NCBI GenBank assembly: GCA_964544935.1
Contig: CAZJDZ010000002.1
Span: forward strand, 30,668-94,667
Direction of reading: 5' to 3'
Source of the DNA: an uncultured Candidatus Saccharibacteria bacterium
GTDB lineage: Bacteria > Patescibacteriota > Minisyncoccia > Phycocordibacterales > UBA5272
Length of the DNA stretch: 64,000 bases
Positions 33,987 to 36,839 of this stretch are shown piece after piece (position 1 is the first letter of the stretch; every line of letters starts with the position of its first letter). The notes below the pieces were generated by a model. It saw nothing but the letters and a program-made list of their open reading frames with translations, searched no databases and had not been told where the DNA came from. Both the position numbers and the translations under genes were made by a program.

Positions 33987-36839
33987 ATGAAGTTATACGA
34001 CCATAAAACTAATGATGCAAAATGGCAAAAGAAATGGGAGGAAGCAAAACTCTATGAGACCCCAAAGCTTCCTACTCACAAAAAAGCGTACATTCTCGAT
34101 ATGTTCCCATACCCGTCTGGTGAAGGGCTCCATGTTGGTCATCCTAAAGGTTACATTGCAACAGATATCTATTCACGTTTTAAGCGTATGAATGGCTACG
34201 ATGTACTTCACCCGATGGGGTGGGATGCATTTGGTCTTCCTGCGGAACAATTTGCGATTAAGAACAAGATTCACCCTCGCATAGCGGTAGAGAAGAATGT
34301 TACCAACTTCAAGCAGCAGCTTTCACATCTTGGTCTTGATTATGATTGGTCACGAGAAATTAACACAACCGATCCTGAGTTCTATAAATGGACACAATGG
34401 ATTTTTACGAAGCTTTATGAGAAAGGTTTAGCATATGAAAGTCATGAGCCTATCAACTGGTGTCCATCGTGTAAGACAGGTCTTGCTAATGAAGACTTGG
34501 ACGGGGACAAATGTGAACGTTGCGACAGCATTGTAGAAAAGAAACCACTTCGTCAGTGGGTGCTTAAGATTACAGACTATGCAGACAGAATGCTTGCCGA
34601 TCTCGACACATTGCAGTGGCCAGAAGGTGTGAAGACTGCACAGAAGAACTGGATTGGAAGAAGTGAGGGGGCAGAATTTGATTTTGAACTTGCTGATATG
34701 AATGGAAAGACTGTACGAGTTTTTACAACACGGCTAGACACACTCTTTGGTGCCACCTTTGTTGCAATTTCAGCTGAGCTTGCTTCAACATGGTTTGATG
34801 AAGGAAAGATAGTTGGGTCTGACATCAAGGACTTCATTATAAAGACACTTGAAGATAAGAAAAAAGAAAATGACTACTCAGTTGTTCCTGAGAAAGAGGG
34901 TGTCTTCACGGGAGTGTACGCTGTCAACCCAGCTACTCAAGAAAAGATTCCAGTATGGATTGCTAACTATGTTTTAGGTACTGTAGGGACCGGGGCAATT
35001 ATGGCAGTACCTGCACACGATGACCGCGATTATGATTTTGCAAAGAAGTACGGGATTGAAATTAAACAAGTCATCACCCCAAAAAGATATGATGTAAAGA
35101 ACCCTTTTGTCGAAGGTTGGCCAGTAGTTGAAAGAAAAATGGTTCAGGTTCTTCTTCGAAACCAGAAAGATGATACCTATTTATTTTTGAAGTGGAAAAA
35201 TCAACCATGGGTAACTTTTGTGGGAGGAGGGATAGACGAAGGTGAAGATGTTCATGGTGCTGCATTACGCGAATTACTGGAAGAAGCGGGTATTTCTAAT
35301 GTAACATTTGTTAAAAAACTTTCAGTTGTAAGAAGTGAATATAGTGCAAACCATAAACAGCAAAACAGGGTTTCTTATTGCGAAGCACTTGTTTTTGATA
35401 CAAATGATAGCACTATTTTTGATAAGGTATCAGGGGATGAACAGGCACAGTATGAAGTTTTCTGGGGGAAGATTACTGCCTTGCCAAAAGAATTTGTTTG
35501 TAGTGAGTGGGATGTGTGGCAATCAGAAGTACTTAATAATTTTCCAAAAGGTCTTCTTGAAGGAGGTGTCATCATTAATTCTGATGGTTACACAGGTCTT
35601 GCAAATGAAGAAGCGAAGAAAAAAATCACCGATGACTTTGGTGGTAAAAAAGTTGTAACCTACAAGATACAGGACTGGGTCTTTGCACGCCAGCGCTATT
35701 GGGGTGAGCCGTTTCCAGTTGTCCGTGATAAGGATGGAAAGGTCTACATGGTGGATGAAAGCGAACTCCCTGTACTTCTTCCGGAAGTTGAGAGTTATGA
35801 GCCAACAGGGACCGGTGAGTCGCCACTTGCAGCAATAACTGACTGGGTGAATGTAAGAGGGGGGATCACTGACAAAGGGACATTCAGACAATCAGACAGT
35901 GGAACCATGTTCACAAGAGAAACAAATACTATGCCACAGTGGGCTGGTTCATCATGGTACTATCTCAGATTCCTTGATCCACATAATAGCCAAGCACTTG
36001 TTGATCCAGCAATTGAAAAAGCATGGGCGCCAGTTGATGTATATGTAGGTGGAGATCATGCAACAAGACACCTCATTTACGCACGATTCTGGCATAAGTT
36101 TCTATATGATATTGGAGTGGTGAGTACTATTGAGCCATTTTCTAGACTTGAGTTCCTTGGATTTATCCTTGCAGAAGATGGTCGTAAGATGAGTAAGCGT
36201 TGGGGGAATATTATCAATCCAGATGATGTAGTTGCTGAATATGGTGCAGATACGCTCCGAGTCTACGAGATGTTCATGGCACCGTTTGAACAAACAGCTG
36301 CATGGAGTACTTCAAGTATCAAGGGTGCAGACAAGTTTCTTGACCGTGTCTACGCTTTGAGAGCTAAATATACAGAGACAAGTACAGTAGAAAATATTCT
36401 TCATAAAACTATCAAAAAAGTTACAGAAGATATAGAGAACTTTAAGTTCAATACCGCAGTTTCAGCAATGATGATACTTGTGAATGAGATGGAAGCGGGG
36501 TCTTTTACTAAAGATGATTACGAAAAACTACTCCAGATTCTTGCACCATTTGCTCCCCATCTCACAGAAGAATGTTTCTCTGAACTCGGAAGTATTTCAT
36601 CAGTTCACTCATCTTCTTGGCCAGAATTTGATGAAAGTAAGCTTGTAGAAACAACAGTTACAATAGCTATTCAGATAGCAGGAAAGATGCGCGGAACTAT
36701 AGAAATCCCAAAAAATGCAGAAGATCCTGTCGTTTTAGATATGGTCAAAAAACATGAGAGTTATCAAAAATACGTTGTAAATACAGAGCCTAAAAAGATA
36801 ATCATTGTCAAAAATAAGATAATCAATATCGTAATTTGA
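33987..36839 (+). CDS. leuS: Leucyl-tRNA synthetase carrying an embedded Nudix hydrolase domain downstream of the CP1 editing domain
   Basis: HVGHP (HIGH) motif, KMSKR, a zinc knuckle CPSCK...CERC and the editing domain (TTRLDT ... [13 protein letters not shown]). Between the editing domain and [17 protein letters not shown] there is a ~140-aa insert containing a perfect Nudix box [23 protein letters not shown]. Confidence 0.92.
   Translation: [950 protein letters not shown]

Follow-up and report, generated by a model that had tools for sequence, protein, structure and literature searches.

We analysed a 64,000-nt stretch of DNA from an uncultured Candidatus Saccharibacteria bacterium (the window; contig CAZJDZ010000002.1 of assembly GCA_964544935.1), in which the leuS gene (33987..36839, + strand) encodes a complete, bacterial-type leucyl-tRNA synthetase (LeuRS) of 950 aa that carries a Nudix domain inside its CP1 editing domain. 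The gene is one open reading frame (ORF) of 950 codons with zero internal stops, in line with a preliminary description of the same DNA, which had held that the frame is continuous and that the insert is not a separate gene; the peptides and coordinates quoted there were all found in place. The family model TIGR00396 (leuS_bact) scores 918.9 bits against a cut-off of 548.4 and matches the protein in two stretches with the insert between them, and the LeuRS of Thermus thermophilus aligns collinearly over the full length (phmmer, E 2e-188). Pfam recognizes the class I core, editing and anticodon-binding domains together with NUDIX, and synteny around the gene is conserved in the order DUF5671 - leuS - sigma70-like - x - YceG - RNase T. 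The gene is the housekeeping LeuRS of an ultra-small Patescibacteria (candidate phyla radiation, CPR) bacterium.

The sequence blocks of the host enzyme are preserved on both sides of the insert. The HIGH motif of the synthetic site reads HVGH in the translation (aa 49–52; 34131..34142, +) and the KMSKS motif reads KMSKR (aa 734–738; 36186..36200, +). The N-terminal part of CP1 (aa 220–365; 34644..35081, +) is covered by a PF13603 match that extends over aa 220–370 (profile positions 1–147 of 185, E 3.4e-55) and includes the Thr-rich motif TTRLDT (aa 247–252; 34725–34742, +) and the AHDDRD editing motif (aa 343–348; 35013–35030, +), while the C-terminal part follows past the insert (aa 523–562; 35553..35672, +) and can be aligned with the T. 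thermophilus enzyme starting at residue 377. In an alignment of 69 LeuRS sequences, in which insert-bearing and insert-free relatives are mixed, the following residues are invariant: (i) H49, G51 and H52 of HVGH, (ii) K734, M735, S736, K737 and R738 of KMSKR, (iii) T247, T248, R249, D251 and T252 of TTRLDT and (iv) H344, D345, R347 and D348 of AHDDRD. Since all four motifs are present and invariant across the 69 sequences, the LeuRS looks functional. Full-length collinearity, the HIGH, KMSKS and CP1 motifs and the housekeeping gene position are shared with the bacterial LeuRS of T. thermophilus (1H3N, 2BYT) and E. coli (4AQ7). The window protein differs from the T. thermophilus enzyme in that a 157-aa Nudix segment stands where that enzyme has a 12-aa loop between residues 364 and 377, and in that the leucine-specific domain (T. 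thermophilus ~580–637) is missing: at window positions 36171–36190 (aa 729–735) the phmmer alignment jumps from chain residue 579 to 638 over 5 query residues.

The inserted segment (aa 366–522; 35082..35552, +) comprises the Nudix domain and short linkers and is absent from T. thermophilus and E. coli LeuRS. Query residues 3–365 pair with residues 3–364 of the T. thermophilus chain, and pairing resumes between query residue 523 and chain residue 377 (phmmer); ~157 aa thus stand in place of a ~12-residue hairpin loop, a net gain of ~145 aa. This size agrees with the ~140 aa given in the preliminary description, which had placed the insertion between CP1 and a later block of the protein. The location has to be corrected: the insert lies inside CP1 and not after it, because the editing model halts at position 147 of 185 and the remaining CP1 comes past the insert. 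An insert-free relative (P0103) matches the same Pfam model up to position 183 of 185.

The Pfam NUDIX match (PF00293; aa 386–499; 35142..35483, +) covers profile positions 6–118 of 134 with an E-value of 5.1e-12 and 46.4 bits, against a gathering cut-off of 21.1. The Nudix box (aa 414–436; 35226..35294, +), identified in the translation, contains the metal-binding and catalytic residues E429, E432 and E433 and satisfies GX5EX7REUXEEXGU at every position, as had been claimed. We aligned 35 divergent inserts as representatives (42% mean column identity), among which G414, E429, E432 and E433 are invariant and R383, G415, E420, R428, G435, K457, E485 and W493 are at least 90% conserved. K457 belongs to a second motif downstream of the box, HKQQNR (aa 456–461; 35352..35369, +), whose consensus H-K-x-x-N-R is common to all insert types in the alignments and is a candidate phosphate or substrate contact. 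From the alignment of 35 inserts, AlphaFold2 modelled aa 362–532 with a mean predicted local distance difference test score (pLDDT) of 93.2 and a predicted template modelling score (pTM) of 0.87; the full-length LeuRS model reached a pLDDT of 87.3 and a pTM of 0.76, with 88–93 in the Nudix blocks. The insert adopts the alpha/beta/alpha sandwich of the Nudix fold, and Foldseek returned 507 matches in the PDB at E≤1e-3, with Nudix structures throughout the best 50 of the 507 and 2azw, RppH, NUDT15, NudC and MutT as top neighbours. With PF00293 far above its cut-off, confident models and Nudix structures as Foldseek matches, fold recognition bears out the Nudix assignment of the preliminary description. 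No second copy of this Nudix type was found in the 64-kb window with the insert profile A1.

On the strength of these conserved residues and of the low cassette dN/dS given below, we consider it probable that the insert is a catalytically active, Mg2+-dependent pyrophosphatase. The opposing view is that the Nudix fold serves as a structural, ligand-sensing or protein-binding module, comparable to NrtR-type regulators or mitoribosomal Nudix-fold proteins. A perfect Nudix box in the window and catalytic glutamates that are invariant in 35 inserts would be unexpected for a purely structural module, and we give this view little credence.

An assembly chimera or frameshifted separate genes would mimic such an architecture. 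Both are virtually eliminated by the single stop-free ORF, by an identical independent assembly and by the occurrence of the insert in ~80 clusters from unrelated samples: the identical protein with the same neighbours is present in the NCBI record and in an independent Logan assembly of run SRR13208891. The chance that the insert is an intein-like spliced element is equally negligible. Its junctions (QVITP/KRYD and FPKG/LLEGG) lack the Cys/Ser/Thr and His-Asn signatures, no Hint or intein family is among the Pfam matches of the window protein, and the AlphaFold2 model folds insert and CP1 jointly with confidence. The only feature noted in favour of an artefact or a self-removing element is the GC content of the insert (0.36–0.40), slightly below that of the rest of the gene (0.41–0.47); otherwise no support was found. 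The insert does resemble inteins in being a discrete in-frame element amid conserved host blocks, in its presence/absence and allelic polymorphism in close relatives and in its horizontal replacement. It differs from them in having neither a Hint or endonuclease domain nor splice-junction residues, and in being a metabolic enzyme fold that stays in the mature protein. We are thus as good as certain that the segment is a genuine in-frame Nudix insertion within a functional LeuRS, which upholds the interpretation of the gene as a LeuRS with an embedded Nudix domain.

The architecture is widespread among related synthetases. In a survey of the best 120 LeuRS matches among 5.8 billion proteins, ~80 clusters carry a domain-sized insert in the same place, nearly all with an intact Nudix box; source names include Candidatus Nomurabacteria, Vogelbacteria and Parcubacteria. 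A scan of GTDB genomes with a narrower insert alignment (A4) gave, among the matches listed, verified LeuRS-embedded domains (L003–L010) with titles that include Patescibacteria group, Ca. Taylorbacteria and Ca. Saccharibacteria. When the insert alone was used as query, a word-indexed homology search returned zero matches; an exhaustive HMMER search of 1.84 billion representatives did find homologues (279 matches at E≤1e-3), and most of the best 150 of these 279 are LeuRS-embedded domains.

Across these proteins the Nudix domain occupies three LeuRS insertion sites: (i) site A at the N-terminal border of CP1, (ii) site B, the window's insertion loop inside CP1, and (iii) site C, ~100 aa past the DWxxSRQRYWG motif. 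The architectures include AAB, AB, BC, BB and AC, and a leuS ORF of Ca. Taylorbacteria (L006 1229-6397) encodes 1722 aa with three Nudix copies. A strict Nudix box is retained in 119 of 138 domains at site B, 12 of 18 at site A and 2 of 12 at site C. The same loops also hold other passengers, namely ASCH and serine hydrolase domains at site A, a methyltransferase at site C and a PF10706 nucleotidyltransferase-like domain at site B (relatives with other passengers or multiple copies are P0030, P0100, P0040, P0053 and L006). In LeuRS without a domain-sized site-B insert, the spacing between the AHD and DW motifs varies from 43 to 97 aa, which marks the site-B loop as an indel hot spot.

The association extends to other aminoacyl-tRNA synthetases (aaRS). 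P0133, the closest of the homologues that stand alone, stops 2 bp upstream of a Nudix-LeuRS, and one contig (L064 3279-10316; ENA ERZ2227954) encodes, in this order, ArgRS, a Nudix protein (165 aa, P0270), a small ORF, IleRS and a further Nudix protein (141 aa). The IleRS of this contig (1167 aa) itself contains an inserted His_Phos_1 histidine-phosphatase domain. An archaeal-type ProRS carries a related Nudix domain (aa 398–515) between its anticodon-binding and C-terminal domains; this form is represented by 5 clusters (P0259, P0283–P0286), and those insert-free ProRS relatives that have an organism name are mostly Nanoarchaeota or Woesearchaeota (DPANN).

These distributions bear on the possibility that the Nudix domain is a mere passenger, that is, an ordinary house-cleaning pyrophosphatase (for oxidised or non-canonical nucleoside triphosphates, ADP-ribose etc.) that is mechanistically unconnected with LeuRS. 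Its place in a permissive surface loop of an essential, constitutive protein would then secure its expression and save a minimal genome one promoter and one gene. ASCH, serine hydrolase, methyltransferase and nucleotidyltransferase-like domains in the same loops, the length variation of the site-B hot spot, the existence of ~80–84% identical LeuRS scaffolds without an insert, the generic MutT/Nudix proteins among the structural neighbours and the histidine-phosphatase insertion in the IleRS of a related contig are all consistent with such a role. The association is too specific for a random passenger, however: close Nudix relatives are mostly LeuRS-embedded (among the best 150 of 279 matches), the clade is found at three LeuRS sites in up to three copies, its stand-alone members adjoin aaRS genes and a related domain resides in ProRS. 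We rate a pure passenger as rather unlikely, though it is the main rival of the reading preferred below.

Comparison with a near-identical genome shows that the Nudix module is swapped as a discrete cassette. The genome GCA_013558375.1 (L001) is 99.3% identical in DNA to window positions 23987–35065 without gaps, shows no detectable similarity between 35066 and 35606 and is then again 97.3% identical. The breakpoints are sharp, since blastn blocks stop at 35065 and restart at 35607, and delimit an exchangeable cassette of 541 bp (35066..35606, +); the corresponding position in L001 is taken by a 523-bp stretch that encodes a different Nudix type. At the protein level, the L001 LeuRS (P0002) is the closest relative of the window protein: their scaffolds are 99% identical, their inserts 28%. 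To the right of the cassette, the first 500 bp contain 13 mismatches, followed by 0–2 per 500 bp, an excess that fits a recombination tract importing the cassette. The simplest explanation of the exchange is homologous recombination within these conserved flanks.

Inserts and scaffolds are uncoupled across the family. The inserts nearest to that of the window (P0065, 60%; P0007, 55%; P0005, 54%) reside in scaffolds that are just 62–77% identical, and over 3160 pairs insert identity is essentially uncorrelated with scaffold identity (Spearman rho 0.05). In 27 of the 3160 pairs the scaffold is at least 85% identical yet the insert is below 40%; the reverse is seen in many pairs. At least five insert types, just 20–30% identical to one another with the catalytic residues kept, show a mosaic distribution among LeuRS scaffolds. 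Within one type, dN/dS (nonsynonymous to synonymous substitution rates, Nei-Gojobori, three genomes with the same cassette type) is 0.11–0.12 in the cassette and 0.04–0.055 in the scaffold with equal dS, which indicates purifying selection and co-inheritance within a lineage; positive selection inside one cassette type is ruled out by the dN/dS of 0.11. A scan of Joint Genome Institute (JGI) metagenomes gave no close relatives of the window's own cassette, and we conclude that its donor is unsampled.

Two further stretches of the window diverge from L001. At 38607–39106, 124 mismatches per 500 bp contrast with 0–5 in the adjacent bins; this hypervariable patch lies within an ORF (38012–39598, +; 528 aa) that has no Pfam match on record and may be another recombining segment. 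The intergenic region between the RNase T-like gene and uvrA (41201–41701) has no similarity to L001 between flanks that are 97% identical, and measures ~500 bp in the window versus ~373 bp in L001.

Immediately upstream of leuS lies a gene for a NADAR-domain protein of 159 aa (33423..33902, +), assigned by PF08719 on the identical locus L066 and on L001. NADAR is an ADP-ribose-linked family. The slot that the gene occupies, bounded by the conserved DUF5671 gene and leuS, is variable: it holds NADAR in the window, L001 and L067, is empty in L061, lacks NADAR in L062 and L063 and, in another genome, holds a stand-alone Nudix gene of the same clade. Absence from L061, L062 and L063 and the Nudix gene found instead in one contig led us to reject NADAR as an obligate partner, and its membership in a Nudix-LeuRS system is uncertain. 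PADLOC gave weak matches of NADAR to PDC-M42C (E 7e-8) and of the insert to PDC-S07 (E 3e-4), both uncharacterised candidates; all PHROGs and PADLOC matches are weak or generic Nudix matches. No toxin or defence genes flank leuS.

Exchange between types could reflect conflict, in which the cassette would counter nucleotide-type LeuRS inhibitors or a toxin-made nucleotide, and swapping would be an arms race. The replacement between genomes with a 99.3% identical flank, the uncoupling of insert and scaffold (rho 0.05; 27 pairs), the mosaic of at least five types and the weak PADLOC matches of insert (PDC-S07) and NADAR (PDC-M42C) point in this direction. Selection within a type is purifying rather than diversifying, with the same dS as the scaffold, and the catalytic and H-K-x-x-N-R residues are kept in all types, which suggests the same chemistry throughout. 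Given also the weakness of the PADLOC matches and a leuS gene without flanking toxin or defence genes, we regard an immunity function as highly improbable.

Further features of the window were recorded alongside. About 2.7 kb upstream of leuS, at ~30938–31321 (+), lies a HIT-family (DcpS_C/HIT) gene, mapped from L001 6952–7335; a relative with 72% identity retains it in the same neighbourhood. Enzymes of the HIT family act on adenylylated compounds. The protein encoded at 31731–32246 (-) is 171 aa long, has a hydrophobic segment at its N-terminus and ends in a highly acidic tail made up of EEIQEDVEEIQKDVDEIQ-like tandem repeats, which appear as blastn self-matches at an 84-bp offset; its gene is syntenic in relatives. 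The window contains tRNA-Leu (TAG, 83–165) and tRNA-Tyr (GTA, 14892–14976) genes, both on the + strand, and no further Rfam or ARAGORN matches beyond these two were found in it.

As the best explanation overall we propose, at somewhat less than even confidence, a housekeeping LeuRS with a grafted Nudix domain that would clear nucleotide side-products of aaRS. A complete Nudix domain (aa 366–522), grafted onto a beta-hairpin loop in the C-terminal third of CP1, would yield one bifunctional polypeptide. LeuRS aminoacylation and editing are probably unaffected, because the insertions fall in surface loops whose length differs among members of the clade. Reaction of the enzyme-bound adenylate with ATP gives dinucleoside polyphosphates such as diadenosine tetraphosphate (Ap4A); the Nudix domain, as an active Mg2+-dependent pyrophosphatase acting on a small nucleotide and not on RNA, would remove such side-products, and the fusion would keep hydrolase and producer at a 1:1 stoichiometry in a minimal genome. 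A small (Mg-)nucleotide substrate is favoured over RNA by the strongly acidic character of the insert (pI 4.88, net charge -7; pI 4.7–6.3 in all 35 representatives). An aaRS-linked nucleotide of the ApnA (Ap4A) type is our leading guess, though a tentative one; it is favoured by the repeated and independent association of the Nudix clade with aaRS proteins and genes. The best PDB profile match is lupin Ap4A hydrolase (E 3e-11, mainly in the N-terminal half, including the R-x-x-V strand), and the broad insert profile matches Aquifex Ap4A hydrolase over its full length. Hydrolysis of aminoacyl-adenylates, which the preliminary description had also considered, is chemically atypical for Nudix enzymes.

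Several observations weigh against clearance of Ap4A-type products. The narrower type-1 profile prefers NudB, the NCBIfam RppH/NudH models (PRK00714 series) reach 18.9–26.3 bits against cut-offs of 116–259 so that no subfamily holds, and the protein nearest in structure (2azw) comes from structural genomics and is uncharacterised. The unrelated enzymes that share the LeuRS loops make the permissive-loop view fit as well as functional coupling, and 10 of 12 site-C copies are degenerate, such that not every LeuRS-borne Nudix domain is an enzyme. To our knowledge ArgRS, which one stand-alone Nudix gene adjoins, does not make Ap4A, and in LeuRS structures tens of angstroms separate CP1 from the synthetic site, in which adenylate and Ap4A would form. 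A simple housekeeping role also leaves the replacement between cassette types unexplained. Naming the substrate by homology was rejected, since Ap4A hydrolase (broad profile), NudB (type-1 profile) and RppH (below threshold) disagree. Compared with the Ap4A-hydrolase, RppH (NudH) and MutT enzymes (1F3Y, 3I7U, 4S2X, 2AZW), the insert is just 15–23% identical and falls under every NCBIfam subfamily cut-off, is acidic and not basic, has its own H-K-x-x-N-R motif and is an internal aaRS domain, whereas these are free enzymes of 15–20 kDa.

The location inside the domain that handles the CCA end raises a different option, in which the graft would act on the CP1-bound tRNA CCA end by removing pyrophosphate or ADP-ribose adducts, or would decap RNA 5' ends like RppH and NudC. 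The structural and profile neighbours include RppH and Nudix enzymes that decap mRNA, the ASCH, methyltransferase, nucleotidyltransferase-like and esterase-type passengers are all plausible RNA-end or aminoacyl-ester enzymes, and a NADAR protein occupies the slot upstream of leuS. Targets of this kind would be provided by toxSAS toxins, which pyrophosphorylate the tRNA CCA end (PMC11559606). The charge of the inserts argues in the other direction: with pI values of 4.7–6.3 they are unlike RNA-binding Nudix enzymes, and the basic RNA-binding surface of RppH-type enzymes is lacking in the acidic insert. E. coli RppH, which served for this charge comparison, is basic. Site C and ProRS, both remote from any CP1, carry Nudix domains as well, the RppH family models remain far below threshold and NADAR adjacency is not conserved; a literature search gave no Nudix enzyme tied to tRNA-end repair. 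We consider action on RNA ends improbable.

A broader proposal would unite the exchange data with a function in cis. The aaRS of CPR bacteria, and possibly of DPANN archaea, would be docking platforms for exchangeable accessory-enzyme cassettes, with the Nudix domain acting on its own synthetase as built-in repair or immunity; candidate targets are a tRNA 3' end with a chemical modification (CCA that is pyrophosphorylated or ADP-ribosylated) or a LeuRS inhibitor of the nucleotide type. Polymorphism of the alleles (at least five types, up to three copies) would be maintained, and recombination would carry them horizontally from strain to strain. We judge this distinctly unlikely, and retain clearance of aaRS side-products as the preferred reading.

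Among known systems, the closest in kind is NF040702 (isoleucine--tRNA ligase, N-acetyltransferase domain-containing), which likewise joins a class I aaRS and an extra enzymatic domain in one polypeptide. Host and passenger are different, the window's passenger is inside the editing domain, polymorphic and cassette-exchanged, and the window protein scores 70.9 bits against this model (cut-off 1999) and is not a member. In eukaryotes, aaRS with accessory domains are familiar. The grafting of such a domain onto an aaRS is of a known kind; what is new here is allelic cassette replacement in a core translation gene. A full-text literature search turned up no account of an architecture that joins Nudix to LeuRS or to any aaRS, and Nudix-LeuRS proteins in public databases carry automatic Pfam labels only.

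A bacterial housekeeping LeuRS whose CP1 proofreading domain contains an entire second enzyme thus appears to be undescribed. LeuRS is both a phylogenetic marker and a drug target (benzoxaboroles bind CP1), and across a large part of the bacterial tree these insertions will distort alignments, filters on gene length and inference from structures. If the Nudix domain degrades Ap4A-type by-products, the protein would unite producer and scavenger in a natural fusion, and would bear on whether dinucleoside polyphosphates made by aaRS are signals or damage to be cleared. Its behaviour as a cassette is unusual for a core translation gene and shows that recombination can remodel essential CPR genes at domain resolution.

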